Shown here one piece after another: positions 14,621 through 58,075 of a stretch of DNA of 64,000 nucleotides. The notes beneath the pieces are model-generated. The model was not told the origin of the DNA, did not search any database, and saw only the letters and a program-made list of their open reading frames with translations. Every line of letters starts with the position of its first letter. The stretch's first letter is position 1. The stretch is taken from contig CAWDSK010000002.1 of the NCBI GenBank assembly GCA_963804995.1, positions 96,001 through 160,000 on the forward strand. Direction: 5' to 3'. The position numbers were made by a program, and so were the translations under genes. This stretch comes from an uncultured Acidobacteriota bacterium (lineage in GTDB: Bacteria; Acidobacteriota; Terriglobia; UBA7540).

Positions 14621-16533
14621 GTTGCGGTAGGGATACCGGTTACCCGGTACCCCCCGCACGGATCCGTACGTGCGCTGGTTAGCGCATACGGCTCTTATCT
14701 CGGATGTGTGGCGGCGAACCGTTGGGATGGCCAAGGATGCACAACGTGCGGAGCAGGCAACCAGCAGGCCGCAAGCTTCCCCAGTCGGTCCCAGTTGAGG
14801 CGGTGGCGTTGACTGCGTTGACGCAGTTGTGTTCGCCACAGTCGGGTCAACCGTTCCCGAAAGATTCGCAGGCGGTTGAGGTTTCCCGGTACCGCGTGAT
14901 AGTTGAAGTAGCCTTGCACGACCGACCGGAGCCATTTACCCGTATCCGCGATGGGATCGTGCCGACGCTGCCGGAGTTGTTGCTTGAGTTCCTGCAACTT
15001 CCCCCGCAGGCGCTTGCTGATCGTCTTCCGCTTCACGGTAAATTGCCCCCTCCGGTTCTTCCCGCTGATATGCGTGAAGCCCAGAAAGTCGAACGTCTCC
15101 GGCTTACCTTCTCCTCTCCGTTTCCGGTAAAGTTCGGCAAACGGCCCGAACTCGATCCGGCGCGTTTTGTCAGGATGCAGTTCCAATCCAAACTTCCCCA
15201 CCCGCTCCCGGAAATCCTCCAGAAAGCGGTCGGCTTCCGTCTGCGATTGGAATCCAAGGACCGTATCGTCGGCATACCGCACCACGACCACGTCTCCCCG
15301 GGCGTGCTTCTTGCGCCACGCCTGCACCCACAGGTCAAAGACGTAGTGCAGATAGATATTCGCCAGCAGGGGCGAGACCACCGCCCCTTGTGGCGTACCC
15401 ATCTCCGTCTCCGACCATTCGCCTTCCTCCCTCACCCCGGCTTTCAGCCATTTCTGGATGAGCCGGAGAATCCGGGGGTCGGCGACGCGATGCTGCACGA
15501 ACTTGAGCATCCATTCGTGGGATATCGAATCGAAAAATCCACGAATGTCCGCGTCAAGAACGTAGTTCACGTGCTTCACCGTGAGCGCGTACGAGAGCGC
15601 GTCCAGCGCTTGATGCTGGCTGCATCCCGGTCGAAAGCCATACGAGAAGCCCAGAAAGTCTTCCTCGTAAATCGCATTGAGGATGGTGACCACGGCCTGT
15701 TGGACGATCTTGTCCTCCAGTGCCGCAACCCCCAACGGACGTTGCCGCCCGTCGCCTTTCGGGATATACGCCCTTCGCGAGGGCTTCGCTCGGAATGCTC
15801 CGCGGTGGACCCGGCTGTGCAGATCGACGAGTCGACCTTCCAGCCCGCTTTCATACTCCTGCCACGTCATGCCGTCTACTCCCGGTGCAGCTTTTCGCTT
15901 CAAGGCGTAAAAGCTTTCCCGCAGCAGATCGACCGTTAAGTGGTGGAGCAAGGCCGTGAACTTCATCTCCCTGTGTTCCTTCGCGGCTTTCCGCACACCC
16001 GCGAGTCCCTGGGACACGCGTGCCCCGCTCTGTGTCGGGTGCGTGTTAGGCCAACGGGTGTTCTCCTTGATCAGCGGCCTTCCCTCCTCATTCTCCGCCA
16101 ACGGCTTCCCGTCTTTGTTCAAATGATTCATCGGTACTGTTCCGCTGTCCGACTCCTCGAAAGCGTGCAGGCGGGCTGTACGGCCATCGCCTTTTCCCGC
16201 CGTCCGGCCACGATCTACGGCGGCCGGCGCCTCCGAGGTCTCCCGGTTCTCGTGCAGAAAGTGTCTAGGCGTGTCTGGGGTCTACGACTACGCAGGACTG
16301 TGCCGGAACTCGCGTTGGCGTCCCGGCCTCATGTTGCCTTCCGTTTAGTCTGAAAACGTCGGCGTCCTGATTGGACATTTTCGAAGCTCAATACCCAGCC
16401 CACCTATTCCCCTGTTTACGCTTCACCGTGCGCCTCACGACGCCCAGCGCAAAACTCGGGGCCGAGTGGATCGCTGCTCCTTCCTCGTGAGAAATTTTCA
16501 TTCTCTGCTTTCTGCCGGTTTATCCCGGCGCAC
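14621..16533 (-). mobile_element. Group II intron (1913 nt), complete
   Basis: 5' end GTGCG at 16533. Domain V GAGCCGTATGCGC...GCGCACGTACGGATC with AGC triad. Domain VI ends CCTACCGCAAC at 14621. Internal RT ORF. Confidence 0.93.
14695..16131 (-). CDS. ltrA: Group II intron reverse transcriptase/maturase, no endonuclease domain
   Basis: APGVDG, RPLG, SYGFRP, GTPQG, RYADD and FDFLGF motifs plus X domain. Stop directly precedes domain V. Confidence 0.95.
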   Translation of the reverse strand: MNHLNKDGKPLAENEEGRPLIKENTRWPNTHPTQSGARVSQGLAGVRKAAKEHREMKFTALLHHLTVDLLRESFYALKRKAAPGVDGMTWQEYESGLEGRLVDLHSRVHRGAFRAKPSRRAYIPKGDGRQRPLGVAALEDKIVQQAVVTILNAIYEEDFLGFSYGFRPGCSQHQALDALSYALTVKHVNYVLDADIRGFFDSISHEWMLKFVQHRVADPRILRLIQKWLKAGVREEGEWSETEMGTPQGAVVSPLLANIYLHYVFDLWVQAWRKKHARGDVVVVRYADDTVLGFQSQTEADRFLEDFRERVGKFGLELHPDKTRRIEFGPFAELYRKRRGEGKPETFDFLGFTHISGKNRRGQFTVKRKTISKRLRGKLQELKQQLRQRRHDPIADTGKWLRSVVQGYFNYHAVPGNLNRLRIFRERLTRLWRTQLRQRSQRHRLNWDRLGKLAACWLPAPHVVHPWPSQRFAATHPR

Positions 16534-33807: not shown

Positions 33808-34050
33808 ATGGTTGTCACTGCGAAACAATTGCGCTTAAACACCTCAGGGATCCTGAAGAGGGTTCAACGCTTGGGTTCCGTTACGGTCACGTTGCGAGGC
33901 AAGCCCATCGCGAGGCTATCCGCTCTGAAGACAAAAGAGCCAATGCGCGTTGAAGACCATCCTGCCTTTGGGATGTGGGCCGACCGGGAAGACATGAAGG
34001 ATGTTCGTGCTTGGCTGAAAAAGATCCGCACTCCCAGGTACCTGCGTTGA
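33808..34050 (+). CDS. Phd/YefM-type antitoxin
   Basis: TAKQLR...VTVTLRGKPIARL...AFGMWADR. TTGA overlap with the toxin gene. Confidence 0.82.
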   Translation: MVVTAKQLRLNTSGILKRVQRLGSVTVTLRGKPIARLSALKTKEPMRVEDHPAFGMWADREDMKDVRAWLKKIRTPRYLR

Positions 34051-34430
34051 TATTCGACACAGACATTCTCATCTGGGTACACCGCGGCCTGCCCGCGGCT
34101 GCCCGGTTCGTCAATAGCGTTCCACTGCCGGACCGAAATTTGTCAGCTATCTCCTACATGGAGCTTCTGTACGGAAGCCGCGATGCCGGTGACCTGAGAA
34201 ATATCGAGAAGATGGTGGAGGAATTGTTCACCGAAGTCGTTCCCATAACCGACAGCATCAGCGTGTCAGCGGTGCGCATCATGAAATCGTTTGTTCTGGC
34301 GCATCGCCTCGATGTGAGTGACGCGCTGATTGGTGCTACCGCGCTTATTCGCCAAGAATCGCTGGCAACCGCCAACTATAAACACTTTAAGTTCATTCCC
34401 GGACTTAGCGTGCGGAGGTTTCACCCCTGA
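34047..34430 (+). CDS. vapC: VapC PIN-domain toxin
   Basis: IFDTDILI, SYMEL, DALIGATA and TANYKHF PIN motifs. TTG start. Confidence 0.88.
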   Translation: MIFDTDILIWVHRGLPAAARFVNSVPLPDRNLSAISYMELLYGSRDAGDLRNIEKMVEELFTEVVPITDSISVSAVRIMKSFVLAHRLDVSDALIGATALIRQESLATANYKHFKFIPGLSVRRFHP

Positions 34431-34793
34431 GCAAGACCTTGGGGTGCGGCCTTCGGATCACCGGAGCGGGAGGCAAAAGAACTGCGCCTCACAACTTGGC
34501 ATACCTATCTTGTCTTAGACCCCAATTTTCTGACAAACAGCAACGTTATTCTCTTGACATTCGTTACTACTATGATACCATAGATAGGTAGTCTAAGATT
34601 CTTGGTGGGAAACCTGCCCACGGACCCGCTCAGCAATGCGCCACACTCCATGAACCCTCGTTTCCGACGAATCCCGAAACCATATTCCAGGCACGGCCAC
34701 ACCGGCTGCCCCAATCCTTAACTGCTTAGCATTGGCTACCATGCGCTAACCACTAACCACTTACCACTAACCACTGCTCTTCGGAGGTCTTCC

Positions 34794-35909
34794 ATGTCGC
34801 TCGTCAAAAAAACCACCCTGACCAAAAGGAAAGCTGCCGCCAATCGGCGTAACGCGAGTCAATCCACAGGTCCGGCGACGCCGGAGGGGAAGGAGCGCAC
34901 AGGCGCCGCCCACCTGCGTCATGGCTTTTATGCCAAGGCGCAGGAGGACGCTTTGCGCGATTTGGGCGAGGACCCTGCCCACTTTGAGGAACTGCTCGCC
35001 GGACTGCGCCAGGAATTCACACCCCAGGGCGCCTTGCAGGACGAATTGGTTATCCGTCTGGCGCGAGTGCTGTGGCTGATGGGCCGCGCCGATCGCTCGC
35101 AGGAGGGCGCCGCGCTGCGCCGCGCCAGGAGCGCCGACCAAGGGCGCGACAACCGGCTGCACGCGCAGATGATGCGCCTCAAGATGACGGCGGAGCGATT
35201 GCGCTTGCTCGTCAAATCCGTAGCGCGCGAGCATTACGTCACCACTCCCGAGGACCTCGAAAAAATGAAGAACTTGCACCAGGAGGAAGTGTTAAAGGAT
35301 ATGGGCGATATCACTCTGGCCCTCTTCTACCAACTCCAGGCCCCGGGCACGGATGAGAACGGCATTGACGAGATGGAGAAAGCGCGCAGAATGGTCGCCC
35401 AGGCCAAGGAGATCTTTGGCATTGGTGCGACCGCCTCGTTCCCGCCCCAAGCGAACGTGGCGCCGGGTTCCAGCCAGCAGGAAACGCCATCCAGCGAAGC
35501 TTCGGGCGTTAATCCGGCGCCTGCCGACCCCGGGGTGGGCGCTACAGAAGAGGAAAAGGATGAGCGATATCCCAACATCATTGCGGCGGATTGGGAGGCG
35601 CGGGAGCGTCCACGCCAGCTTCTGGAGAATATCCTCACCCGGCAGGTGGAGAGTTGCGAGGCTCAGCGTAAGGCCCTCCTGAGGGAGTCGGTGGCCGGTC
35701 CTTCACCTTACGAACTCGCCGCGGAAATCGCTCCCAGCCACGCCGATGCCTTGCTAATGCGCCGAATGCAAGATGCCAACATGCGGGAAGTCCGCCGACT
35801 CACCAACCTGCTGCTGAAAATCAAACGCCAAGAGGGCAAAAGGGAAGCCGTGGAAGCGAGCGAAGAGGATATTCAAAGCCACGATATAATAGAAAACAAA
35901 GGCAGTTAG
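34794..35909 (+). CDS. Hypothetical protein of the NAxxSTGPxTxEGK-motif family
   Basis: GGAGG ribosome-binding site; AANRRNASQSTGPATPEGK...RHG...EDP N-terminus; helical body; 371 aa. Confidence 0.75.
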   Translation: MSLVKKTTLTKRKAAANRRNASQSTGPATPEGKERTGAAHLRHGFYAKAQEDALRDLGEDPAHFEELLAGLRQEFTPQGALQDELVIRLARVLWLMGRADRSQEGAALRRARSADQGRDNRLHAQMMRLKMTAERLRLLVKSVAREHYVTTPEDLEKMKNLHQEEVLKDMGDITLALFYQLQAPGTDENGIDEMEKARRMVAQAKEIFGIGATASFPPQANVAPGSSQQETPSSEASGVNPAPADPGVGATEEEKDERYPNIIAADWEARERPRQLLENILTRQVESCEAQRKALLRESVAGPSPYELAAEIAPSHADALLMRRMQDANMREVRRLTNLLLKIKRQEGKREAVEASEEDIQSHDIIENKGS

Positions 35910-40754: not shown

Positions 40755-40831
40755 GCCGCCGGTGGCTTCACGCCGCCACGTCCACTGGCCGGATAAGGCT
40801 ATGTCCGGAGCCTGGCGATTCGTAATCGCCG

Positions 40832-41726
40832 CTACTTCGCAAATTCCTTTGCGACTCGAATTGTTCGGGTGTGGATTTCGACGGTGTCCTCTACGCGGCG
40901 GGCATAACCTCCGGCGAGCGTGACTGCCACTGGGATTTTCCTGGCGCGGGCCTTCTCAAACACCAACCGGTCGCGCCGCTCGAGTCCCTCAGAGAGAGCC
41001 TTAGCCCGCCGAGTTGGTCATTTTGATAAGGGTCCGCCCCCGCCACGTAGAACATCAGGTCGGGCTGGAATCCGCTGAGCGCTTGGTCGAGGCCTTTTTC
41101 AAGCTCCTGCAAGTATTCCGCGTCTTCGACCGCGTCGCGCAGGTCGATGTCAAGCGTGCTGGGAGGCTTGGGGTAGGGATAGTTGTTTACCTGGTGGATG
41201 GAAAGAGTGTACACGGTGTGATCGCCGGCGAAGATCGCGGCGGTCCCGTTGCCTTGATGCACATCGCAGTCCACCGTCATGGCGCGCTCGATGACTTTGT
41301 CTTTCTGCAAGCGGCGAATGCCGATGGCGAAATCGTTCAGCACGCAGAAGCCTTCGCCATGATCGGGATAAGCGTGATGAAAGCCCCCCCCACGTTTACG
41401 GCTACGCCGCCTTCGAGCGCCAGGCGTCCCGCTAGAATCGACCCGCCTGCCGAGCGCCACACGGCGCGCACCAGCTCGGGGGAGTAAGGGATTTCCAGGC
41501 GCAGGATTTCAAGGTAGGAAAGTTTGCCGGCCTGCAGCTTGCGGATATAGTCGCGGTGGTGGACCAGCGCCACATCCTCATCCGACGCCGGCGGCGGCTC
41601 GACAAAATCCTCCGGACCGGCAATTTGGTCACGCAATACCTTCTCTTTGATCAAGCGATATTTGATGGAGGGAAAAACGTGGCTCCCCAGATTCAAGTCG
41701 TATTGGTCAGAGTAAACGAGTTTCAA
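40832..41726 (-). CDS. Histone-deacetylase-family amidohydrolase; two single-base frameshifts (~41388 and ~40990), probably assembly errors
   Basis: The pieces join to HVFP...GGGFHHA...GFC...DCDVHQGNGT...GADP...LAGGY. Each break is one missing G in a G run. Confidence 0.85.
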
Positions 41727-41727
41727 G

Positions 41728-43602
41728 CTATTCTACCGTCACTGACTTCGCCAGGTTACGCGGCTGGTCCACGTCGCAGCCCCGCAATACTCCGATGTGG
41801 TAGGCCAGCAATTGCAGCGGCACCACTTCCAGGATCGCCGAGAGCAGTTCATTGGTATGCGGCAGGACGATCAGGTGGTCCGCCATGTCGCACACTTCGC
41901 GATCGCCTTCGGTCACCAGCGCCAGGATGGAAGCGCCGCGCGCCTTCGCTTCCTTGATGTTCGAAATCGTGCGCTCGTAACGGGTGCGCGAATCCTCCGC
42001 GCTAAAGTCACACGTGGCGATCACCACCACCGGCAGGCCATCGGCGATCAACGCGTTCGGCCCGTGCTTCATTTCGCCGGCAGGATAGGCCTCGGCGTGG
42101 ATGTAGGAAAGCTTCTTCATCTTCAACGCGCCTTCGAGCGCCACAGGAAAGTGCACGCCCCGGCCAAGGAAGAGGAAATCCGATGAGCGGTAGAAATGCC
42201 GCGCCAGGTCTTCAAACTCATCGTCCTTCTGGAGCACGCTCTCGAGTTGTCCGGGGAGCGCGGTCAAAGCCGCCAGCAGTGGCTTTGCTTCCGCGCCTGT
42301 CAGATGGTGGCGGGTTTGCGCCAGGTAAACCGCAAACAGATAGAGCGCGGTCAACTGCGCGGTGAACGTCTTGGTTGAGCCCACACCAATTTCCGGACCC
42401 GCGTGGGTATAGATGGTGCCATGCGCCTCGCGCGGCGCCATGCTGCCCAGCACGTTGCAGATCACCAGCGTCTTCGAACCCTTGGCCTGCGCCTCGCGCT
42501 GGGCGGCGATGGTGTCAGCCGTTTCGCCGGATTGCGTGATGAGCAGCGTGAGTATTTGAGGATCGACCAAGGGGTCACGGTAGCGGAATTCCGAGGCGTA
42601 ATCCACTTCCACGGGCACGCGCGCCAGCCGCTCAATCAATACTTTTCCCGCGAGGCCCGCGTGCCGCGAGGTCCCGGCGGCGACAATCTTGATTTCCTTG
42701 AACGACCGGAAATCCTCCTCGCTGATTTCCATCTCATCCAGGAAGACCTGGCCGGACTCAGGCGAGACTCTGCCCAGAGCTGTGTCGCGCACTGCGCGGG
42801 GCTGCTCGTAGATTTCTTTAAGCGTGAAGTGCTTGAACCCACCCTTTTCGGCCAGAATGGGGTCCCAGGTGATGTGCTGGACGCGGCGCGTCACAGGATG
42901 GCCATCGAAATCGGTCAGCGTCACGCCGTTGGGAGTGAGCACGGCCACGTCGCCGTCGGCCAGGAAGAACAAGTCGCGGGTGTGGTAGAGGATGGCCGGG
43001 ACGTCGCTCGCCACAAAATATTCGTCCTTGCCCAGGCCGATTACCGCAGGCGGTCCCTGCCGCACCGCCACGATCTTGTTCAAATCGCGCGTGGAAATGA
43101 TCGCGAGCGCGAACACCCCCGTGAGCTGCCGCACGGCCGCGCGCACGGCGTCTTCAAGACTGGTCGCAGGGTGTGCGGGATCTAAGCTCCCCAGGTGCTT
43201 CTCCACCAGGTGAGCGATCACTTCCGTATCGACTTCAGTCGAAAACCGGTGGCCTTCGGCTTCGAGCTGCTTCTTCAGCTCCAGGTAGTTTTCAATAATC
43301 CCGTTGTGAACCACCATGACGGTGTGGTGACAATCGGAATGCGGATGCGCGTTCTCCTCCGTGGGCGCGCCATGCGTGGCCCAGCGCGTGTGTCCGATGC
43401 CATAGGCTCCGTCCACGGGATCGAGGCGGATTTTCTCCTCAAGGTTGCGCAACTTGCCCGGCGAGCGGCGGATGTCGAGCTTGCCCTCGCGCATCACCGC
43501 CAGGCCGGCGGAATCGTAGCCGCGGTATTGCAGCCGCTGCAATCCTTCCAGCAGTACGGGTACCACGCGCTTGTTTCCGATGTAGCCGATAATTCCCGAC
43601 AT
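41728..43602 (-). CDS. glmS: GlmS-like protein (glutamine-fructose-6-phosphate aminotransferase fold) with substituted catalytic residues
   Basis: [37 protein letters not shown] and [11 protein letters not shown] all present. N-terminus is MSGII (not MCGI) and the isomerase motif is LKMKKLSY (not LKLKEISY). Confidence 0.9.
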
Positions 43603-43676: not shown

Positions 43677-43685
43677 ATTATAGCA
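43677..43685 (-). promoter_or_regulatory. Extended -10 promoter upstream of the glmS-like gene
   Basis: TGCTATAAT on the minus strand, ~75 nt before the ATG. Confidence 0.5.
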
Positions 43686-43800: not shown

Positions 43801-45123
43801 TCACACCACCGGCTGCGCGAAGTAGGCGGGGTAGTGGCGCGGGAAGGACTTCTTCTCGCGATAGGAGCGGGCGAGTTCCATATAAATCCCCAGGTCGCGG
43901 TCGAGGTCCGACTGCGTGCCGTCGAAGTAGAAATTGCGGATGGGGATTCCGCCGTAGGCTTTACTGAGCTTCGGGTAGATGGCCTCGCTCACGATGCCGT
44001 TCATGCAGGTGAAGGGGCTGATATCGATGATGCCGTCGGCGCCATGCTTGGCAAGGTACGCGGCCTTGCCCACGCTCAGCACCATCTCACCCAGCGCACC
44101 GCCGGTGGGCAGATAAGGCCAGGCAAGCTCCAGGATTTCTTCGATGGGAGGCTCTTCATAGCCCACGAAATCATCCTCGAAGGGCGCCAGCAATGCCTTC
44201 TCGTCGGAGTGTTGGATGTGTGAGGTCAGGTGGGCTTTGACCATTGCCAACGAGAGTTTCCGGCCGGTCAGCAGGAGTTTACGTTTCTGCTCGTTGTTGG
44301 TGTACTCAACCCATTCGCCAATGTGGCTCAGCCAAGCCTCCGCCCCGTAGCTTTCCATCTTACGGACGAGGTCTTCGTTGGAGAAGGTGTTGAGGCGGCA
44401 GAAAATTTCGCCCACCACGCCGATCAGCGGGATCTCGCGATCGTAAAGCGCCGGGACACGCTGGAAGCGGGCACGGGCGCGGGTCATGGCCGCGGCGATA
44501 GACTGGAGCTGGCAGGCGGCCTCGGCGCAACTTGATTCGATCGTCTTGCACACGTCTTCCAGAGATTCCTGGAAGGCGCGGTCGGCAGCACCCGGAGCGG
44601 TTTCGTAGGGGCGCGTCTTGAGCAGCGCGCGGTGCAGCGTATCAGCCGCGAGCAGCGCCCGCCACGCCGTCCGCAGGAAAAGGTTGGCGATGTCAGCACC
44701 CAGGTCCGCGTACCCGTTCTCGCTGGTGGGGGAGAGAACTTGCACGTCGCCGTATCCCGCGTCGCGCAGAATCTTGCGCAGGAAGGGCGCGTATTGGCCG
44801 AAGCGGCATGGTCCGTCGGCCGTGGGCATGAAGAAAGCCGTATGTTCCGCGTTGAAGCCGGGCTGCTCGATCACGCGCAGGAAATCGCCCACCGTCACCT
44901 TGGCGGGATAGCATTCGTCGCCGGTGGTGTATTTAGCGCCCAGCTCACGCGTGCGCTCGTCGGACGGCGGTGTGGGTTTCGCGTCCACCCCCAGGAAGCG
45001 GAACGCCGCCGCAAAGGCTTCCGGACTGCCCTCGCCCATTGTGGGGATATAGAGGGTCTTCCCGCTCAGCGGGTGGCCGGGGTCTATTTTGCGGCTGACA
45101 TGACGGTGTCCGAAGAAGGGCAT
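43801..45123 (-). CDS. CoA-activase-associated protein (2-hydroxyacyl-CoA dehydratase-like)
   Basis: ECYP, GPCRFGQY, VVGEIFCR and SPFTCMNG motifs. ATG 45123 overlaps the upstream gene. Confidence 0.8.
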   Translation of the reverse strand: MPFFGHRHVSRKIDPGHPLSGKTLYIPTMGEGSPEAFAAAFRFLGVDAKPTPPSDERTRELGAKYTTGDECYPAKVTVGDFLRVIEQPGFNAEHTAFFMPTADGPCRFGQYAPFLRKILRDAGYGDVQVLSPTSENGYADLGADIANLFLRTAWRALLAADTLHRALLKTRPYETAPGAADRAFQESLEDVCKTIESSCAEAACQLQSIAAAMTRARARFQRVPALYDREIPLIGVVGEIFCRLNTFSNEDLVRKMESYGAEAWLSHIGEWVEYTNNEQKRKLLLTGRKLSLAMVKAHLTSHIQHSDEKALLAPFEDDFVGYEEPPIEEILELAWPYLPTGGALGEMVLSVGKAAYLAKHGADGIIDISPFTCMNGIVSEAIYPKLSKAYGGIPIRNFYFDGTQSDLDRDLGIYMELARSYREKKSFPRHYPAYFAQPVV

Positions 45124-48100
45124 CGCAAGAATCCTTTGCTGTCGAGATACGCTTCGCAGCGGGTGATGAAGCCTGCGTCGTTCGAGTGCCCGTCGAACTG
45201 CAGGATGAGCGAAGGCTTGCCCGCGGCGTCGTCCAGAAACGACTTGATGTAGGAGTCGGGGCCACACTTGAAGTTCGAAATGTAAACCAGGTGCAGATTG
45301 GGGTGGCGCCGCGCAATGCGGGCCGCGGCCAGGATGCGCCGCCCCGAATTCCAATACATGTTGGGATTAACGTCTGAGATATCCTCGAGGTCCAGCGGCA
45401 GGGCATCCATGGGAAGCACGTTCACACCATAGAGCGCGCGAAGCTTGCGCGGGATATCGCAATTCACGCTGCGGTCATAGAGATTGTACGGCCGCCCCAC
45501 CAGCACCAGGGCCGGTTCCGAAGTTTCCCGCAACTGATCGAGAGCCTCTCTACCCGCGTCCAGCAACGCGTCTGTGAAGGCGCCCTGCGCCGCGTAGGCA
45601 GCCATCACAGCCCGAGCGTTCGCGCGCGCCGACACACCCAGGCCTCGGGCGAACTTAGCCAGCGCCTTTTCCACATGCTTTCGTCCGAGGCGGAAATGCA
45701 CGGTGGGCGCCAGGAACTTGGATTGGGCAGCTTCCAATTGCGGCACCGCGCGGATGACGAACGGGAGGGTCTGGTTCCAGGGGCAGAGGTGGGAATCAAC
45801 CTTGCTCGGCGGCCCTTCCACGTTCACCATGTTGGGAATCAGGATGTAATCGATGCCCTTCTCAAGCAGGTTCTGGACGTGCCCATGCGCCACCTTCACC
45901 GGGAAGCACGGCTGGGCGATGGCCAACTCTTCACCCGCCATGGATATCTTGCGGTCGGTCGGGGAAGAGACTATGACGTCATAATTCAGTTCCTGGAAAT
46001 ACGCACACCAGAAGGGGAAACGGTCGTAGTAATACATCGTACGGGGAATCCCCACGGTGGGGCGGTTTCCCTTGGCCGGCAGCAGCGTTTCTTCCAGCAG
46101 TTTTTCGCGCCACTCGATCAAATCTTCGATCACGGGCTTGCGGTCAGTGCGTGCCCTCTTGCGGAACTTGTCAGAGCACTTGTCTCCCCAGTAGGTGCGT
46201 TGTCCCTCAATATTGAATTCCTTCATGTCGCAATAATTGGAGCAGGCCTGGCACACGAACTCGCGAGTGGTGAAGTTCACCCGATTCAGGTCATAGCCCC
46301 GGAAGCGGCTGGCCTCGGTGGTGCCCTTCATGCGGTCGCGGGCGATCAGAGCCATCCCAATGGCGCCGATCACGCCGTTGTGCGGCGGCACGATGACTTG
46401 CTTCCCAAGAATCTGCGAGAAGGCCGCCGCCACCGCGTCGTTGTAAGCCGTACCGCCTTGGAAGAAGATCACGTTGCCGATCTTCCGTCCCCGCACCACG
46501 CGGTTCAGATAGTTGAGCGCCACCGAATACGCCAGGCCCGCGGCCAGGTCTCCCACCTCCGCGCCTTTGTGCATCAACCCCGTGACGTCGCGCTCCATGA
46601 ACACGGTGCAGCGCTCGCCCAGGCGCGCGGGGTTGGCGGACCCCAGCGCCAGCCGCGCAAATTCTTCTTTGATGGAAATCCCCAGCTTCTCCGCCTGCTC
46701 TTCCAGGAACGAGCCGGTGCCCGCGGCGCAAGCCTCGTTCATGGTGAAGTCCACCACCACGCCCTTGTTGATGCGGATGAACTTGGAATCCTGCCCGCCG
46801 ATTTCGAAGATGGTGTCCACGGGTTCCATGCCCATCTGATTGCAGACGTGCATGGAGCCGGTCTTGTGCGCGGTGATTTCGTCGTTCACGGTGTCCGCGC
46901 CTACCAGTTCGCCGATCAACTCGCGGCCGGAGCCCGTGGTGCCCACGCCGCGAATATCGAGCGACGTGGCCAGCTCCGCCTCGATTTCCTTAAGGCCGCG
47001 ATCCACAACCTCAATCGGCCGCCCTTGAGTGCGGAGATAAATCTCCTTCAGCAGGTTTCCCTCCGCATCGATCACCACCAGGTTGGTTGAGACGGAACCG
47101 ATGTCGATGCCAAGATAGGCTTCCACCCGTTCGCCCGGAGCAGGCAGCCTCGCAGGTTCCGCGCGGTCGCGCAGCAAGAGGACATGCTGCATGGAGAGGG
47201 GATCTGAACAGGCAAAGTTCTTGCGGGCGGCCTCGTGCTGGCGCAATTGATGAATCCGCTTGAACGACCGCTTGCGGTATTCCTCCGCTTCCAGCATCGC
47301 CGCGCCCATCGCTCCCAGCCACGCGTAGTGCTCAGGAATAAGCAGGTCGGATTCGCTGAGCTTGAACGCCTCACGCAGGGCGTTTGAGACTCCCTGGTTC
47401 ATGGCCACGCCGCCAATAAACGCCACGGGAGGGACCACGGCGCGGCCCTTCACGATGCTCGATTTGTAATTACGCGCCACGGCGTCGCACAGGCCGCGCA
47501 GAATCTGGTCTGTGGTATAACCCTTCTGCTGGGCGTGAATCATGTCGGTCTTGGCGAAGACCGAACAGCGGCCCGCAATCCGCGCCGCGCAACTGGCCCC
47601 GCAGGCCGCGGGACCGACTTCCTCAATTGTGTAGAGCAGCCGTGTGGCCTGCTGGTCGATGAACGAACCCGTCCCCGCCGCGCATTCGCCGCTGGTCTGG
47701 TAATCAAGAATGCCCAGGTGCTTGCCGGACACGTTCGGGTCCATGCGGAGGTATTTGGAAGCTTCCCCTCCCATTTCGAAAACCGTGCGCACTTGCGGGT
47801 AGAACATCCGCAACCCCTTGGCAATGGCGCGGAATTCATTCTCGAAGTAGATGCCCAGAACTTTAGCAATCAGTTGGCTGCCGGAGCCCGTCACGCGAAT
47901 GCCTTCCACGCTTTCTTCCGGCAGGTGGTCGTAGAGCTCCTTCAGCAGGTCGAAGGTCGACTGGATGGGGCTTCCTTGCAGGCGGCGGTAACGCGACATC
48001 ACCAGCGGGCGGCCGGCAAAGGGACTTGCCTCCGGGAAGGAGGCGGCGTAAAAGGTTTCGGATTTCTCGGTAAGCTGCCGAAAACCGGGTCCATCGTCCG

Positions 48101-48164
48101 GGCCCCCAATGGCCGCCAACTTTAAACTAACGGCGCCGATATCCAGACCGATGTTGATGCTCAT
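45084..48164 (-). CDS. Acyl-CoA dehydratase activase (two BadF/BadG/BcrA/BcrD ATPase domains plus DUF2229-like domain)
   Basis: GLDIG/GIDIG, TGSG, GGE/GGQDSK, CAAGTGSF (twice), CSVF/CTVF, CFPVK and FKCGPDS motifs. Confidence 0.9.
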   Translation of the reverse strand: MSINIGLDIGAVSLKLAAIGGPDDGPGFRQLTEKSETFYAASFPEASPFAGRPLVMSRYRRLQGSPIQSTFDLLKELYDHLPEESVEGIRVTGSGSQLIAKVLGIYFENEFRAIAKGLRMFYPQVRTVFEMGGEASKYLRMDPNVSGKHLGILDYQTSGECAAGTGSFIDQQATRLLYTIEEVGPAACGASCAARIAGRCSVFAKTDMIHAQQKGYTTDQILRGLCDAVARNYKSSIVKGRAVVPPVAFIGGVAMNQGVSNALREAFKLSESDLLIPEHYAWLGAMGAAMLEAEEYRKRSFKRIHQLRQHEAARKNFACSDPLSMQHVLLLRDRAEPARLPAPGERVEAYLGIDIGSVSTNLVVIDAEGNLLKEIYLRTQGRPIEVVDRGLKEIEAELATSLDIRGVGTTGSGRELIGELVGADTVNDEITAHKTGSMHVCNQMGMEPVDTIFEIGGQDSKFIRINKGVVVDFTMNEACAAGTGSFLEEQAEKLGISIKEEFARLALGSANPARLGERCTVFMERDVTGLMHKGAEVGDLAAGLAYSVALNYLNRVVRGRKIGNVIFFQGGTAYNDAVAAAFSQILGKQVIVPPHNGVIGAIGMALIARDRMKGTTEASRFRGYDLNRVNFTTREFVCQACSNYCDMKEFNIEGQRTYWGDKCSDKFRKRARTDRKPVIEDLIEWREKLLEETLLPAKGNRPTVGIPRTMYYYDRFPFWCAYFQELNYDVIVSSPTDRKISMAGEELAIAQPCFPVKVAHGHVQNLLEKGIDYILIPNMVNVEGPPSKVDSHLCPWNQTLPFVIRAVPQLEAAQSKFLAPTVHFRLGRKHVEKALAKFARGLGVSARANARAVMAAYAAQGAFTDALLDAGREALDQLRETSEPALVLVGRPYNLYDRSVNCDIPRKLRALYGVNVLPMDALPLDLEDISDVNPNMYWNSGRRILAAARIARRHPNLHLVYISNFKCGPDSYIKSFLDDAAGKPSLILQFDGHSNDAGFITRCEAYLDSKGFLRCPSSDTVMSAAK

Positions 48165-48602
48165 AGGCTTCCAGGGATTGCTATTGGACGCCAAGGATAA
48201 GGCCACTTGGCCTGCTCATCCACCCCTTCTGTTCCGGCATTCCCGCCGCTCGCCCTGGCACGAGGGATAGTAGGTTCGGGTCAAAACACGCTAAGGCCGA
48301 CTACAAGGAGAAACACCGGCAATTCAGATTCCGAGGGGCGACGGGAGGTCTAAAATCGGCCAATTTGACAGTTAAAATCGGAAGCATAGTCCGATTTATT
48401 GCGACAATCTGTCTCGCCCCTTGATTCATCCGGGCCATCTGACCTGTCGTCGCTTTCCGCGCCAATCATGATATGAGCTCCAAGATGGTTTCTTCCTTAA
48501 CGAAACTCTCCGTGTCCTCCCTAACGCAACATCGCAAATCCTCTTTTTGAGCATAAGTTTTGAATTTTCACGTAGGGCCGACGCTTGGTGCGAATGGCGA
48601 TG

Positions 48603-52114: not shown

Positions 52115-52303
52115 CTTCTCGTCTCCTCACACCCGTTTGGAATGCAACCATTATTGCTGTCACGCCTGATCAGTGCAAAGCAAATTCTGCACAGCCTGCA
52201 AATGGCCTTGCGCCGCCTGCATGTCGCATTTAGAATGGGCCCACGCGATAAGTCCGTGAAACATAGATATCTTCACCCCCGCTGCCAGGCTCCCTTGCAA
52301 GGG

Positions 52304-53143
52304 ATGCGTGTGTTCGGATGGGTTTCGTTACTTGCCCTGTTGCCGGTCTTCGCGAGCTTGATTTTACGGCATGGGCTGGTCCACGCGGCAAGTCCGCGGG
52401 GCTCTGAGAGCAACACGGTTGAGAGCACCTCGCCCACGGCCGCCGCGACTTCGCTTGACCTGTCCTGGCACGACAGCCTGGGCGATGGTTTCCCTGACAG
52501 CGCGCGCTTGGATAACGTCCAGGACCGCATGAACTTTCTCCACTGGCTGACTTTCCTGGCCGAGACACAGTATTACGCCCCTTGGCCGAGTGCGCAGGGG
52601 GAGATTCAGGATTGCGCGGGGCTCATCCGCTTCGCTTACCGCAATTCACTTCTCGCCCACACGCCAGCCTGGCGGAAGGATGCGGGGCTCCCATTCGATC
52701 CTGGATTCGGTGACATCCGAAAGTTCAATTACCCTTACGGACCACTCGGGCGAGCGCTGTTTCGGACCCAGCCCGGCCCTTCAGGCCCGGAAGACCTTAC
52801 CAGAGGTGCTTTTGCGGAGTTTGCCGACAGCTCAACACTGCTGCGGTACAACACGTTTCCAATAGCACGCGACCTTCGGGCCGCGCGGCCCGGCGACCTG
52901 TTGTTCTTTCACCAAACTGTTGAGCGGGAGCCTTTCCATACCATGTTGTTCGTCGGCAGATCGTACTACCAGCCGCAGGCCTCCGATTGGATCGTTTATC
53001 ACACGGGAGACATTAACGGCCACCGGGGCGAGATTCGCGAGGTGCGCGCGGCTACCTTATTCGAACATCCCGACCCGCGCTGGAGGCCGCTCGCGAGCAA
53101 CCCCAATTTTCTGGGAGTCTATCGCCTGGAAATTTTGCGTTAG
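52304..53143 (+). CDS. DUF1175 (YfaT-like) protein
   Basis: DCAGLIRFAY, PGDLLFF, YHTG and WRP...NPNFLGVYR motifs; upstream of the macroglobulin gene. Start uncertain. Confidence 0.85.
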   Translation: MRVFGWVSLLALLPVFASLILRHGLVHAASPRGSESNTVESTSPTAAATSLDLSWHDSLGDGFPDSARLDNVQDRMNFLHWLTFLAETQYYAPWPSAQGEIQDCAGLIRFAYRNSLLAHTPAWRKDAGLPFDPGFGDIRKFNYPYGPLGRALFRTQPGPSGPEDLTRGAFAEFADSSTLLRYNTFPIARDLRAARPGDLLFFHQTVEREPFHTMLFVGRSYYQPQASDWIVYHTGDINGHRGEIREVRAATLFEHPDPRWRPLASNPNFLGVYRLEILR

Positions 53144-53223
53144 CGGTTGTGGGGGTACGGGTTGCCGTACCCGCTTAGTTCGGTCGCGCGATAAAGAAGA
53201 TGAGGAGAGCCAATGTCCCACCC

Positions 53224-53324
53224 TGTCATCCTGAGCGCAGCGAAGGACCCCTGTAGTTCGTAGCGGTTGGTGCACAGAGCAAACTACGGGGGTTCTTCGC
53301 CCAAAATGCGGGCTCAGAATGACA
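53224..53324. repeat. Palindromic extragenic repeat (TGTCATCCTGAGC...GCTCAGAATGACA)
   Basis: Inverted termini TGTCATCCTGAGC / GCTCAGAATGACA with internal arms ACCCCTGTAGTT / AACTACGGGGGT. Confidence 0.7.
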
Positions 53325-53341
53325 ACGCAAGCAATGCTCTC

Positions 53342-56300
53342 ATGAATGGCGACGTGCACTATCACGGCAGTACATCGCGAAAAGCCTCTTCATCACGAGG
53401 GGCCCGTGGAGCTGCCAGTGCAGCCCTGGTGGCCGCACTTCTGCTTGCGGGCCTGTTTGTAGCGCCCCGCGCGGCCCTGGCGCAAGAAGAAACCCCCTCC
53501 ACCGAACCATCCTTTTCGATCTCCTCGCGCCAAACATTCGCGCCTTCCCAGCAGCCGAAGGTCTGGATTAGCTTCCGCCAGGTTGACCATTTGGATTTCC
53601 GGGTCTATCGCGTGAAGGACCCCATTCAGTTCTTCTCCAAACTGAAAGACGCCCATACTTTCGGCAGCGAGAAGGCGGAATTGGCCCGCGAGAAAACCTG
53701 GCTCGAGCGTCTTCATGATTGGAAGCGTGACCTGCGATCGAGGATCCGGGATTTCTTCCGCGCGCAAGTGCGCTTTGAAACGCGCTTGCAAATCCACGCC
53801 TCGCACGTGCAGGGGCGGAAACTTCAGCGCATTCCCCTGGACGTTGCGGCTTACGCGCAGGTGCCGCTCCTGAACCGCGAGCAACTCGTGCTCGGCTGGC
53901 GGGAACTTGTGCCCAAGACGCGGGACTCGGAGTTCCAGGAAATCCCCGTCGATATTCACGAGAGGGGTTTGTACCTGGTGGAGGTGGCGTACCGCGAGCT
54001 GCGCGCCTACACCTTGGTGATGGTCACCGACCTGGCGCTGGTTTCGAAAACGGCGCCGGGGCAGGTGCTGCTGTTTGTGGCACGGCGGGACTCCGGCACA
54101 CCCGTGGCAGGCGCCCAGGCTGCAATCTTTAACAACCATCAGGAGCTGGCACGGGGCACGACGGACGCTTCCGGCATCTTTCAAACCACCTTCCAGCAAA
54201 TCAAGGTCGATAACTCCATCATGGTGGCGGTGGCCGATCAAGATGTGGCGGCGACCAGCATCGAGCCTTTCCTCTTCTTCGACACTTCGGCGACGGACTA
54301 CCTGGGCTATATCTACACCGACCGTCCCGTCTATCGTCCGACGCACACGGTAAATTTCAAGGGTATCGTGCGGGCGCGACGCAGCGGTCAGTTTAGCGTC
54401 GACGTGCCGGGGCCGATCACAGTCGAAATCACCGATCCCAACCAGAAGACCGTCTATCAACAGAAACTCAACGTCTCCCCATTCGGTTCGTTCCACGGTA
54501 CGATCACGCTCGGCCCGCTGGCGGCGCTGGGTGAGTACGGCGTCACGGCGCACATTGGCGAAAAGCGCGTGTACGGGTCATTCGAGGTTCAGGAATACAA
54601 GAAGCCGGAATATGAAGTCGCGGTTTCGACGGAGAAGAGCCGGTACCTTCAAGGCGAGACGATCCAGGCCACCATCAGCGCGCGTTACTATTTTGGCGCG
54701 CCGGTTTCGAACGCCCGCGTGAAATATTCTGTCTTCCGCTCGAGCTATCAATTTCCCTACTGGCGAATCCTCTGGGGTGACGAAGCGTACGAAGGGGACG
54801 AAGGCGAAGGGAATTACAATGAAGATTACTTCGGCGAGGAGATTAGCCAGGGCACGGGTCAATTGGATGCGGACGGTGTGCTGCACGTCTCCCTGCCTAC
54901 AGAAGTTGATAAGCAGAAGCACGACTGTCGCTATCGCATCGAAGCGCATGTGACCGACGCCAGCAATCGCGAAATCTTGGGCGGGCATGGCGTGCTGGTC
55001 ACGTACTCGACAGTCGTGGTCTTGTTGGAGACGGATCGCTACGTTTATGCTCCCGGCCAGCGAGCGGAGATTACCGTCCGCACCCTGGACTACGACTCCA
55101 ACCCCGTCTCGACCAACGTCCAGCTTCAGTTTGAAAGCCACGAGAGTTGGGGCTCCGAGGCGCAACGGCGGGTTTTGTCACAGGTGAGTGTGTCGACCGA
55201 CGCCAACGGCTTGGGGCACACTACCTACACCGTTCCCAAGGTTCCCTGGCTCACCCTTCACGCCAGCACCTTCGATCGCAACCAGCGCGAGGCAAGTTTC
55301 GAAAGTAGCCTGTGGATTGCCGGCGCGGGATTCTTTGCCGGCGAGATCCAATACCGCCGCGTCGATCTCTTCCCCGACAAGCATTCATACAAGCCCGGCG
55401 ATACCGCGCACGTGTTGATTGTGACCCATGAACCGGGTGCGCAGGTGCTGGTGACCTCCGAAGGCCAGCAGGTTTACTCATGGTCCGTGCACACGGCGCC
55501 CGGCGATTCGCTGACAGTCAACGTCCCCATTGAGGAGCGTTTCGAACCGAATTTTTTTGTCAATGTGGCCTTCATAAAGAGCGAGCAACTGTTCGAAAGC
55601 TCGAAGAACCTCTCGGTGCCGGCGGTCGAGAAAGTCCTGAAGGTCACGGTTGAAACCGACAAGCCACAATACCGGCCCGGCGATCAGGTGACGTACACCC
55701 TGACGGCGCAAGATCAGCAGGGGCACCCCGTGAGCGCGGAGTTGAGCTTGGGCGTCGTGGATGAAGCCATCTACGCGATTCGACCGGACATTGTTCAGCC
55801 TCCTGAAAAAGTGTTCTACGCGCGCGAGTGGGACCGCGTCTTTACCCAATTCTCGACTGCTTACTGGTTCACTGGCTATTCGGGGCGGCATAAGATGGAT
55901 CTCGCCCAGCTTCGCGGGCCCACGCGCCTCGCGGATTTCAAGAACCCGGGGATGGTCCAGCCCAAAGTTCGCAAGTTCTTCCCTGACACCATCCAGTGGC
56001 TGCCCACGCTGGTGACGGATTCAAGCGGCAAGGCGCGCGCGACTTTCAACTTTCCGGATTCGCTCACCACCTGGCGGGCCACGGTACGCGCCTTTACTCG
56101 CAACACGCTGGTGGGCCAGGTGGTGGGAAAGGTAATCACGCGCAAAAACCTGATCCTGCGCCTGGAAACTCCCCGCTTTATGGATCAGGGCGATACGGCG
56201 ACGCTGACCGGAATCGTGCACAATTATCTCGCGACAGACAAGACCGCGAAGGTCTCGCTCTCGGCAGAAGGTGTGGAGGTGGCCAGCCCGGCGGAAGCCA

Positions 56301-58075
56301 CCGTGAACATTCCCAAAAACGGCGAGGCCGTGGTCACCTGGAACGTACGCTCGCCCAAGATTGCCCAGGCGAAGTTGCTGGCCAAGGCGCTGACCGATGA
56401 AGAATCGGACGCCGTCGAACTGGAGATGCCGGTGGAGCCCTGGGGGCTTCAGCAGAGCGTGGCGCAATCCGGAGCGCTGCGCATCGACAAGGATGAAATC
56501 ACGCGCGCCCTGGTTCTGCCGCAGGATATTAACGCCGACGCCTCCGCGCTGCGCATCGACGTGTCTCCTTCGATAGCCGGCACGCTGATGTCTGCGCTGG
56601 ATTTCCTGGCCACCTATCCTTACGGGTGCGTCGAGCAGACCATGTCGAGCTTCCTGCCCAACATCCTGGTGATGAAAGCCGTGAAAGATTTGGGGCTCAC
56701 CCCACCCCCGGCTTCCGCCGAACTGGAAAAGAAGATCGCCGCCGGACTCGAGCGTCTCTACATGTTCCAGCACGACGATGGCGGATGGGGCTGGTGGCAA
56801 ACGGACGAGACGCATCCTTTCATGACCGCTTATGTGGTGGCAGGGTTGGCGCAGGCGAAGGCGGCAGGCTACCCGGTCGATGAGCAGCGCCTAAAGCGCG
56901 GCCGGGAATCGCTCCTCAAGCAAATTAAGGAGAATCCCCGCGCGCTCGCGGACATCCGCGTTTACATGATTTACGCGCTGGCCCTCAGCGGCGACATTGA
57001 TCACGCGCTAGTGGAAGACTTGTATTCCGCGCGCGAGAAATTCTCCACGCACGGGCAGGCGTTAATGGCGCTGCTGCTAATGCAACTCAAGGATTCGCGC
57101 GCGCAGGAATTCGTGAAACTACTAGAAAGCAGGGCCCACTCCCAAGGTCCCTTCGTTTGGTGGAAATCTGAACGGGAGGCCATGCTCAACTTCTCCTCAG
57201 ACAATTCTTTTGAAACCACCGCGTACGCGCTCAAGGCGCTGGCGAACCTCGACCCGAAGAGTGACCTGTTGCCTCGCGCCACGCGCTGGCTGATTGAACA
57301 TCGCTCGGATGGCTACTACTGGGATTCCACGGAGCAGACCGCGACCGCCATTTACGGTTTGATCGACTACCTCAAGATTTCCGGCGAACTCAAACCCAAT
57401 TACACGCTGACTGTGTATCTGAACGGGCAGAAGCTCACCGAACGGACCATCACAGAAAAGGATGTAGCAAGCCCATCTCCCCTCACGCTCACGACCGGTG
57501 CGCCGCAGGTGCACGCGGGCTCGAACGAGGTCCGAATCGTAAAGTTGGGCGCGGGCGTGCTCTACTGGTCGGCGGCGGCTTCATACTTCTCGCGCGAGCC
57601 GAAGCCTGCGCCTGCGGGCAGCGCTGCATTGAACGTCCTGCGCGATTACTTCAAGCTGGTGCCGGAGCGGTTGAACAATCGCATCGTCTATTCCGAGCAG
57701 CCGCTTGCGGGCCCCGTAGAGAGTGGCGATGTGATCGTGGTACGCCTGACCGTCAGCACCACGCAGGATGAGCAGTACTTGCAGATTGAGGACCCGATTC
57801 CGGCGGGCCTCGAGTTCATCGAGCAGGAAGGCTTGTACGAGCTCAAGGAAAAACCGCCTTGGTGGGATTTCTATTACACGCAGCGCGAATTTCACGATGA
57901 CCGCGCCGCGCTGTTCTCCACCACGTTCCGGCGGGGGCAGGGGCAGTTCCACTATCTCCTGAAGGCCTTGACACCGGGAACCTTTCAGGCGAATCCGGCT
58001 CGCGTGCTGCCCATGTACGAACCCGCTCGGCAGGCGTCGACACACGCGGCCACCGTGACCGTAACGGGGCACTAG
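53342..58075 (+). CDS. Bacterial alpha-2-macroglobulin family protein
   Basis: TDRPVYRP, EYKKPEY, VDEAI, PDSLTTW, thioester motif PYGCVEQ and DGGWGWW. Start uncertain. Confidence 0.93.
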   Translation: MNGDVHYHGSTSRKASSSRGARGAASAALVAALLLAGLFVAPRAALAQEETPSTEPSFSISSRQTFAPSQQPKVWISFRQVDHLDFRVYRVKDPIQFFSKLKDAHTFGSEKAELAREKTWLERLHDWKRDLRSRIRDFFRAQVRFETRLQIHASHVQGRKLQRIPLDVAAYAQVPLLNREQLVLGWRELVPKTRDSEFQEIPVDIHERGLYLVEVAYRELRAYTLVMVTDLALVSKTAPGQVLLFVARRDSGTPVAGAQAAIFNNHQELARGTTDASGIFQTTFQQIKVDNSIMVAVADQDVAATSIEPFLFFDTSATDYLGYIYTDRPVYRPTHTVNFKGIVRARRSGQFSVDVPGPITVEITDPNQKTVYQQKLNVSPFGSFHGTITLGPLAALGEYGVTAHIGEKRVYGSFEVQEYKKPEYEVAVSTEKSRYLQGETIQATISARYYFGAPVSNARVKYSVFRSSYQFPYWRILWGDEAYEGDEGEGNYNEDYFGEEISQGTGQLDADGVLHVSLPTEVDKQKHDCRYRIEAHVTDASNREILGGHGVLVTYSTVVVLLETDRYVYAPGQRAEITVRTLDYDSNPVSTNVQLQFESHESWGSEAQRRVLSQVSVSTDANGLGHTTYTVPKVPWLTLHASTFDRNQREASFESSLWIAGAGFFAGEIQYRRVDLFPDKHSYKPGDTAHVLIVTHEPGAQVLVTSEGQQVYSWSVHTAPGDSLTVNVPIEERFEPNFFVNVAFIKSEQLFESSKNLSVPAVEKVLKVTVETDKPQYRPGDQVTYTLTAQDQQGHPVSAELSLGVVDEAIYAIRPDIVQPPEKVFYAREWDRVFTQFSTAYWFTGYSGRHKMDLAQLRGPTRLADFKNPGMVQPKVRKFFPDTIQWLPTLVTDSSGKARATFNFPDSLTTWRATVRAFTRNTLVGQVVGKVITRKNLILRLETPRFMDQGDTATLTGIVHNYLATDKTAKVSLSAEGVEVASPAEATVNIPKNGEAVVTWNVRSPKIAQAKLLAKALTDEESDAVELEMPVEPWGLQQSVAQSGALRIDKDEITRALVLPQDINADASALRIDVSPSIAGTLMSALDFLATYPYGCVEQTMSSFLPNILVMKAVKDLGLTPPPASAELEKKIAAGLERLYMFQHDDGGWGWWQTDETHPFMTAYVVAGLAQAKAAGYPVDEQRLKRGRESLLKQIKENPRALADIRVYMIYALALSGDIDHALVEDLYSAREKFSTHGQALMALLLMQLKDSRAQEFVKLLESRAHSQGPFVWWKSEREAMLNFSSDNSFETTAYALKALANLDPKSDLLPRATRWLIEHRSDGYYWDSTEQTATAIYGLIDYLKISGELKPNYTLTVYLNGQKLTERTITEKDVASPSPLTLTTGAPQVHAGSNEVRIVKLGAGVLYWSAAASYFSREPKPAPAGSAALNVLRDYFKLVPERLNNRIVYSEQPLAGPVESGDVIVVRLTVSTTQDEQYLQIEDPIPAGLEFIEQEGLYELKEKPPWWDFYYTQREFHDDRAALFSTTFRRGQGQFHYLLKALTPGTFQANPARVLPMYEPARQASTHAATVTVTGH

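Follow-up and report, generated by a model that had tools for sequence, protein, structure and literature searches.

A GlmS homologue altered at both active sites is fixed and conserved in one family of Terriglobia

GlmS is treated as an essential enzyme and two of its residues, Cys1 and Glu488, as indispensable (residue numbers of this kind are those of E. coli GlmS throughout). A 64,000-nucleotide stretch of DNA from an uncultured Acidobacteriota bacterium, called the window here and the source of all coordinates given without a locus number, encodes a full-length GlmS homologue that has neither residue, and the question arose of what such a protein may do. The original prediction had described an intact open reading frame (ORF) of 624 aa with Ser at codon 2 (TCG) and Lys in the isomerase motif (AAG), the motifs AAGTS and VGSTKTF, and otherwise retained scaffold motifs and equivalents of His504 and Lys603. 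Translation returned the ORF intact and all of these residues and motifs as described, the Ser and the Lys aligning on Cys1 and Glu488. The features of gene and protein are:

41728..43602, minus strand: ORF of the GlmS variant (P0001), 624 aa, with an N-terminal class II glutamine amidotransferase domain and two SIS domains
43597..43599, minus strand: Ser2 (TCG) replacing the N-terminal nucleophile Cys1; Ser in 170/170 variants, Cys in 52/52 canonical proteins
43528..43530, minus strand: Gln25 replacing Glu24 (RLQYRG); Q in 169 and H in 1 of 170 variants, E in 52/52 canonical proteins
42676..42678, minus strand: Ala309 replacing Cys300 (AAGTS); A in 164/170 variants, C in 51/52 canonical proteins
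42664..42666, minus strand: Arg313 replacing the aromatic Tyr304/Trp, a second new positive charge in the sugar domain; R in 166/170 variants
42379..42381, minus strand: Gly408 replacing Ala400 (VGSTKT); G in 154, S in 11 and A in 5 of 170 variants, A in 52/52 canonical proteins
42112..42114, minus strand: Lys497 (AAG, codon 497) replacing the general base Glu488; Lys in 170/170 variants, Glu in 52/52 canonical proteins
42064..42066, minus strand: His513, the catalytic His504, kept in 170/170 variants
41731..41760, minus strand: C-tail with Lys619, the equivalent of Lys603, kept in the best 120/120 database matches and in 170/170 variants

P0001 scored 777 bits on the GlmS model TIGR01135 (cut-off 418) and contained the Pfam domains GATase_6 and SIS. 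Its AlphaFold (AF2) model had a mean pLDDT of 87.8, with low values in the C-tail, and Foldseek returned E. coli GlmS 2J6H as top match to this model (TM 0.85; range of E. coli GlmS 0.85-0.90). The alignment to E. coli GlmS (PDB 4AMV chain) ran from end to end and placed Ser2 on Cys1 and Lys497 on Glu488, and a search of the ESM Atlas with residues 250-624 gave generic SIS/GlmS clusters only. Cys1, Glu488, His504 and Lys603 are named as catalytic residues of GlmS in passages of a review (PMC9272926). P0001 thus shows the architecture of the family, a score above its cut-off, His504, Lys603 and the C-tail, but lacks Cys1 and Glu488, and with two defining residues failing it is not classed here as a GlmS enzyme.

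A non-redundant set of 170 variants, comprising loci and database matches and leaving out the chimera L111 described below, was compared with 52 canonical proteins. Eight of the 169 sites that are invariant in at least 51 of the 52 canonical proteins were changed in the variant, namely C1S, E24Q, C300A, A400G, L486M/T, E488K, D511A/T/S and G541A, and Y/W304R was also nearly fixed (166/170); E24Q, Y/W304R, L486M/T, D511A/T/S and G541A had been missed by the original prediction. Gln at the position of Glu24 was likewise found, by alignment, in a PurF-like match of the same genome. Arg313 (position 304) presumably lies near the sugar; for Tyr304 no passage was found in the open full-text literature. 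Kept in 170/170 variants were R26, G27, Y28, R73, W74, T76, H77, H86, N98, G99, D123, Q348, S349, T352, K485, K503, H504, R539, A602 and K603. We take R73, T76, H77, H86, N98, G99 and D123 to be the glutamine pocket, R26, Y28, W74 and R539 the channel and coupling set, and Q348, S349 and T352 the phosphate loop, several of these roles being assumed from general knowledge of GlmS. In 170/170 variants Ser follows directly after the start Met; serine Ntn hydrolases use a free N-terminal Ser as nucleophile, which in the variant would require removal of the Met.

A search of 61 related genomes and then of all 137 genomes of the order found the variant form across one family (f1), with 74-93% identity. 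The relatives carry the database label Terriglobia, and three carrier records (L171, L172, L185) are labelled gp13 or subdivision 13. All of the best 120 database matches start with Ser-Gly-Ile and have Lys at 488. A DNA pattern for the Lys488 motif matched in 65/72 other genomes of the family; among 328 genomes of other families in the class four matched, none of them in a glmS. Both substitutions, which the original prediction had proposed to trace through a clade, occurred together in 170/170 variants. Among 54 variant loci the Ser1 codons were TCG (23), TCA (15), TCT (8) and TCC (7), both Lys codons were in use at position 488, and the canonical copies in the same genomes use TGT/TGC for Cys1. 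Within the genus, the pairwise dN/dS (Nei-Gojobori) was 0.069 for the variant (253 pairs) versus 0.060 for the canonical gene (136 pairs), and in 24 genomes with both genes it was 0.084 versus 0.080; in these 24 genomes the glutamine domain evolved more slowly in the variant (dN 0.102 versus 0.172 in the canonical protein). The median dN/dS of the variant was 0.054 in genomes without the canonical gene (17 pairs) and 0.066 in genomes with it (171 pairs). A replacement of catalytic residues in a gene under purifying selection is the pattern of a pseudo-enzyme, and a dN/dS of about 0.07, well away from 1, together with substitutions that are not private to one strain, bears out the prediction of a conserved, catalytically altered GlmS paralogue.

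Single-base losses in the gene next to the variant (see below) could be taken to hint that this assembly is faulty, but sequencing error, a decaying pseudogene and a changed genetic code are rejected as explanations by 170 sequences, four TCN codons and both Lys codons alongside canonical TGT/TGC, and a dN/dS of 0.07, and we give them practically no credence. The original prediction had considered a read error unlikely; that judgement is upheld by the same residues in 120/120 best database matches and 170/170 variants, but its argument that Cys to Ser needs two substitutions does not hold, since historically one base suffices (TGC to TCC). Two records stood apart. L111:470-2347 (G099), with Cys1, Glu24 and Lys488, looks like an evolutionary intermediate but was rejected as a recombinant or an assembly chimera: outgroup-like first 40-50 residues with Cys1 are joined to a variant body with Lys488, the first 40 residues are 65% like the sister variant and 82% like outgroup GlmS, and purS lies upstream, as in outgroups. 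L142:2501-4375, a variant gene in a record labelled Actinomycetes, is nearly identical to a member of the family in the tree and is either a mislabelled or mis-binned contig or a transfer. Among the sequencing runs listed none was of RNA, and the best DNA share was 0.11.

In a tree of 78 proteins all variants fell into a single clade (SH-aLRT 100), placed among the canonical glmS that other Terriglobia families carry as their one copy; the canonical copy of the family lay far from the variants and grouped with the sole glmS of the sister family. Variant and canonical copy of the family are 45% identical, and a recent duplication of the canonical gene as source of the variant was rejected (AU p 0.0005). 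The stem branch of the variant was short, with strong conservation thereafter, and the sister family has the canonical type only (4/4 genomes). By its place in the tree, the variant descends from the vertically inherited Terriglobia glmS and is the ancestral glmS of one family. The simplest history would be that a distant second glmS entered the ancestor of the order, after which the sister family lost the old gene and the family studied here altered it.

Most relatives carry a second, canonical glmS: a strong canonical match was present in 60/73 high-quality genomes of the family and one more had a contig-end fragment, leaving 12 without. The genome of the window (92% complete, 9 contigs) holds no other full-length glmS, so the search for a second gene that the original prediction had called for failed here and succeeded in the relatives; the prediction had also named a sole glmS that complements a glmS mutant as evidence against itself, and the first half of this, a sole glmS, was found. 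The variant was missing from only 2/73 high-quality genomes, one of them (G063) unpublished (each genome tally includes up to eight unpublished genomes, counted without sequence analysis), and the difference from 12/73 has a Fisher p of 0.009, with kinship not corrected. Mapped on a tree of the 63 genomes that were scored, the canonical gene showed at least 7 changes of state and at least 6 separate losses. In congeners a BON-domain gene and an MFS gene flank the canonical glmS; in the genome of the window these two genes are direct neighbours on a single contig, separated by about 230 bases without a glmS remnant, and the junction where the canonical glmS would be expected lacks it in G026 (98%, 7 contigs), G008 and G028 too. 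All assemblies are less than 100% complete, so that single absences are unproven, but the joined flanks argue for real loss.

Since glmU was present in 5/5 tested genomes without canonical glmS, bacteria with glmU can apparently lack the canonical gene. The genome of the window has GlmM, GlmU, YvcK, NagA, a NagB-like gene and a NagB-II-like gene, the product of the last keeping the catalytic Glu and His. A NagB-II-like SIS protein was found in 12/12 genomes without canonical glmS and in 63/73 overall, and a NagB-like gene in 11/12 versus 35/61 of the others (Fisher p 0.026), a link that was not significant after kinship correction (6 independent pairs, median p 0.22); both NagB-like and NagB-II-like proteins score below the curated cut-offs. 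No NagA match was found in G026 and G079, two of the most complete genomes (98%, 7 and 10 contigs), which narrows salvage from GlcNAc there. In E. coli, overexpressed NagB can suppress a glmS defect, according to an excerpt of PMC11822699.

Ser1 is not confined to the family. A pattern scan of GTDB contigs for Ser1 glmS, covering 51/64 parts and restricted to TCN codons and ATG starts, found at least 117 loci, and Ser1 proteins were also labelled Nitrospinota, Bacillota, Bryobacterales, Blastocatellia and Omnitrophota. All full-length Ser1 proteins outside the variant clade kept Glu488 (13/13). A single origin of all Ser1 GlmS was rejected (AU p 0.0025, from a quick tree with long branches in play); the independent origins make loss of Cys1 a recurrent path, and addition of Lys488 was seen only in the family of the variant. 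In five Ser1 genomes examined, of unstated completeness, two Nitrospinota also hold a Cys1 copy, and in the other three the Ser1 gene was the only full-length glmS found; one of these lies directly behind glmM, one has intact motifs and one is degenerate, the last on a single 6.2-Mb record. Ser1/Glu488 genes at L148, L154, L196, L205 and L206 (Nitrospinota), L160, L181, L183 and L207 (Bacillota) and L132 and L161 (Bryobacterales) adjoin glmM or a gene for the N-terminal half of glmU, and judged by sequence they are candidates for ammonia-dependent synthases or deaminases. L144 and L191 (labelled Bryobacterales; 2501-4354) are full-length degenerate Ser1 GlmS with altered HTRWATH, HNG and C-tail motifs, and in the genome of L144 the degenerate gene is the only full-length glmS found. 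At L151, from 2501 onward on a Nitrosomonas record, a Ser1 glmS-like start runs into a stop after 41 residues, either a pseudogene or a fragment.

The surroundings of the variant gene were analysed for signs of expression and for a pathway. Two features frame it:

43677..43685, minus strand: extended -10 promoter-like motif TGCTATAAT, 83 nt upstream of the variant start, which has no Shine-Dalgarno motif
40830..41726, minus strand: HDAC-family deacetylase gene, beginning right after the variant stop codon

The motif, which reads from 43685 to 43677, corresponds to the extended -10 promoter of the original prediction; its absence from a simple -35/-10 scan is expected because it is an extended -10 without a -35 match. 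TGnTATAAT occurred within 140 nt upstream in 37/54 variant genes, 0/30 canonical copies of the family and 0/19 outgroup glmS, a match to a consensus rather than proof of expression, and a Shine-Dalgarno-like word was present in 8/54 variant genes versus 27/30 canonical copies of the family. No glmS ribozyme or other Rfam RNA reached the gathering score upstream of the variant. The HDAC-family gene, judged by its position, is likely co-transcribed with the variant; compared with five relatives, the copy here is split by the loss of one base near 41389, next to a homopolymer run, and of another near 40991, which reflects either an assembly error or recent inactivation. An HDAC-family gene lies downstream on the same strand in 54/95 variant loci, many of which end early, and argJ in 31/95; these were the only recurrent neighbours, without a pathway-like neighbourhood, and an HDAC-family gene also lies near canonical glmS in 3/20 outgroup loci. 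Upstream of the variant, an acyl-CoA dehydratase activase-like gene (1040 aa) and a 517-aa partner ORF occupy 43801-48206 (minus strand), neighbours that are not conserved in relatives. Elsewhere in the window are a group II intron domain match (RF02005, 170 bits) at 16278-16498 (minus strand), a PIN-domain ORF (33975-34430) and a 371-aa ORF without Pfam match (34794-35909), which together span 33975-35909 (plus strand) between gyrB-like and gyrA-like genes, and a DUF1175 gene followed by a bacterial alpha-2-macroglobulin (1602 aa) at 52142-58075 (plus strand).

With a nucleophile removed and the charge of a base reversed, both half-reactions should stop, and the variant has likely lost both catalytic steps. 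We therefore favour, with a confidence that stands about midway, a pseudo-enzyme that would bind both glutamine and a sugar phosphate and whose role is predicted not to depend on canonical GlmS; in genomes that have lost the canonical gene, NagB-type deaminases would supply glucosamine-6-P. What speaks for this reading is that, in the alignments, both replaced residues are the named catalytic ones while residues assigned to binding, channel and domain coupling are kept. Moreover, if the variant did the work of the canonical copy, it would be difficult to see why 60/73 genomes keep that copy under equal constraint. The NagB-II-like protein in 12/12 and the NagB-like gene in 11/12 genomes without canonical glmS also fit this reading. 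Parts of the published mutant work agree: growth was not restored by an E. coli glmS with Cys to Ala (PMC11822699, in excerpt), and the related deglycase FraB lost its activity even when the corresponding Glu was changed only to Asp, whereas a Glu to Ala mutant of FrlB still bound ligand (both from sections of PMC10285752). The strongest point against the pseudo-enzyme, again from sequence comparison, is that the new Ser and Lys never vary and that helper residues (His504, Lys603, oxyanion residues and channel gate) have not drifted, as in an enzyme; pure loss of catalysis would be expected to leave several residues at the replaced sites, and the invariance counts against it. At least 12 good genomes without canonical glmS, with glmU intact wherever tested and two of them also without a NagA match, weigh in the same direction, as do the NagB link that did not survive kinship correction and the scores of both deaminase-like proteins below their cut-offs. 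In two other genomes, of unstated completeness, a Ser1 protein with intact Glu488 is the only full-length glmS found, which hints that some housekeeping activity can be carried out with Ser1.

The main rival is an enzyme still active through Ser/Lys chemistry, in either of two forms that together we rate somewhat less likely than the pseudo-enzyme. The variant might still be a rewired glucosamine-6-P synthase, with Ser1 as nucleophile (or with free ammonia entering directly) and Lys488 as base, made neutral by the neighbouring Arg304/Lys485, and the canonical copy would then be a losable accessory. The greater frequency of canonical loss (12/73 versus 2/73, at least 6 separate events), the joined flanks here and the empty junctions in three relatives, the invariant helper residues and the more than one origin of Ser1 beside glmM or glmU genes all fit such a synthase, but the charge reversal at the general base, the retention of the canonical gene in most genomes under equal selection, the deaminase back-ups in 12/12 genomes without it and the Glu488 kept in every independent full-length Ser1 protein do not, and we regard it as unlikely. 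A new enzyme with another reaction, for example a serine amidohydrolase coupled to Schiff-base (Lys488/Lys603) chemistry on another sugar phosphate or sugar acid, would account for the invariance of the new Ser and Lys, for the changes that became fixed together at both active sites, a cluster of 8 sites, for intact inter-domain channel residues and for a short stem branch followed by strong conservation; against it, unchanged glutamine-recognition residues indicate no new amide substrate and the neighbourhood, in which only the HDAC-family gene and argJ recur, resembles no pathway, which makes this form rather improbable as well. Co-occurrence of both genes in most genomes, and a retained His504 that in this fold is supplied across the dimer interface (FrlB, in a section of PMC10285752), would suit a regulatory or dominant-negative subunit in mixed dimers with canonical GlmS, the role of a regulatory subunit having been among those originally proposed. 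This role is disfavoured by the missing canonical copy in the genome of the window, by the repeated losses elsewhere and by only 45% identity without recent duplication; because the variant stays intact and equally constrained where the canonical copy is missing (0.054 versus 0.066), we consider a subunit of this kind very improbable.

For the pseudo-enzyme that we favour, the following course can be proposed. Canonical glmS would have taken over synthesis, and the retained old gene would have been retuned at both sites. Ser1 could hold glutamine in the N-terminal pocket without cleaving it, and Lys488 together with Arg304 would remove the base for isomerisation and, on a geometry that we assume, favour a neutral or anionic sugar phosphate over glucosamine-6-P; candidate ligands of the SIS pocket are fructose-6-P, glucose-6-P, 6-phosphogluconate and fructose-1,6-bisphosphate. 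The C-tail of GlmS closes on sugar binding (from part of PMC10087520), and closure of the retained C-tail may report carbon and nitrogen supply to a putative partner. Cells without the canonical gene would obtain their glucosamine-6-P from NagB-like and NagB-II-like deaminases run backwards with ammonia, or from salvage. A lead for the partner is GlmR/YvcK, which binds and activates GlmS in B. subtilis as described in a portion of PMC7525490: YvcK was found in 116/132 genomes of the family and 0/4 of the sister family, and in the outgroup Terriglobia loci L066, L068 and L069 yvcK/glmR either adjoins glmU-glmS or overlaps the start of glmS. This lead, drawn from gene content, is weakened by two families with a normal resident glmS from which YvcK is also missing (f3, 0/5; f12, 0/3), which makes the co-loss in the sister family weak evidence.

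A whole bacterial family has thus fixed changes at both sites of GlmS and parts with the altered gene less readily than with the normal one. Either GlmS has a non-catalytic role of such weight that it outlives the chemistry, and the variant would then make this role accessible to study by itself, or amidotransferase/isomerase chemistry can run on Ser and Lys. Should the variant, against our expectation, be a synthase, a dozen genomes or more would depend on it alone for the cell-wall amino sugar, an essential and near-universal enzyme would have been rewired in nature at both of its active sites, and cysteine-alkylating GlmS inhibitors would be expected to miss it. Where these proteins have been given a name, it is that of ordinary GlmS or glutamine-fructose-6-phosphate transaminase, so that metabolic models built for such soil-type organisms may be in error. 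In the open full-text literature, as distinct from subscription journals and supplements, no description of a natural GlmS with these changes was found.

In sum, the variant represents, as far as sequence can tell, a new form within the GlmS family. It resembles bacterial GlmS (TIGR01135; E. coli 2J6H, 1JXA, 4AMV) in length, domain order, predicted fold and 44% identity, and shares with it His504, Lys603, the glutamine pocket, the phosphate loop and the C-tail; unlike bacterial GlmS, its clade has fixed C1S, E488K, E24Q, C300A, Y304R, A400G, L486M, D511A/T/S and G541A. The Ser1 GlmS of Nitrospinota, Bacillota and Bryobacterales share C1S with it but differ in their separate origin and in keeping Glu24 and Glu488. 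The glucokinase regulatory protein, a SIS-fold sensor of sugar phosphates, has retained this fold for regulation and ligand sensing, as proposed here for the variant. Removal of the nucleophile is known from the engineered E. coli GlmS C1A (PDB 3OOJ), whose structure title names bound glucose-6-P and glutamate (C1A structure and residue equivalences of GlmS in parts of PMC8041777 and PMC7948480), but this is a laboratory mutant with Glu488 intact, whereas the natural variant has Ser and is also without the base. NagB-II/GlmD deaminases and FrlB/FraB deglycases likewise put GlmS-like sugar domains to other uses, but they are SIS-only, without an amidotransferase domain, and keep the catalytic Glu (same sections of PMC10285752), the opposite of the variant in both respects; P0001 falls far below the cut-offs for SIS enzymes (NF046059, 109 bits versus 430; NF041128, 78 versus 580) and does not belong to them. 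The trypanosome prozyme (PMC6221367), finally, is a pseudo-enzyme paralogue that needs its active paralogue; decay or loss of such a protein would be expected without the active partner, but the variant persists without its own, intact and with a dN/dS of 0.054.
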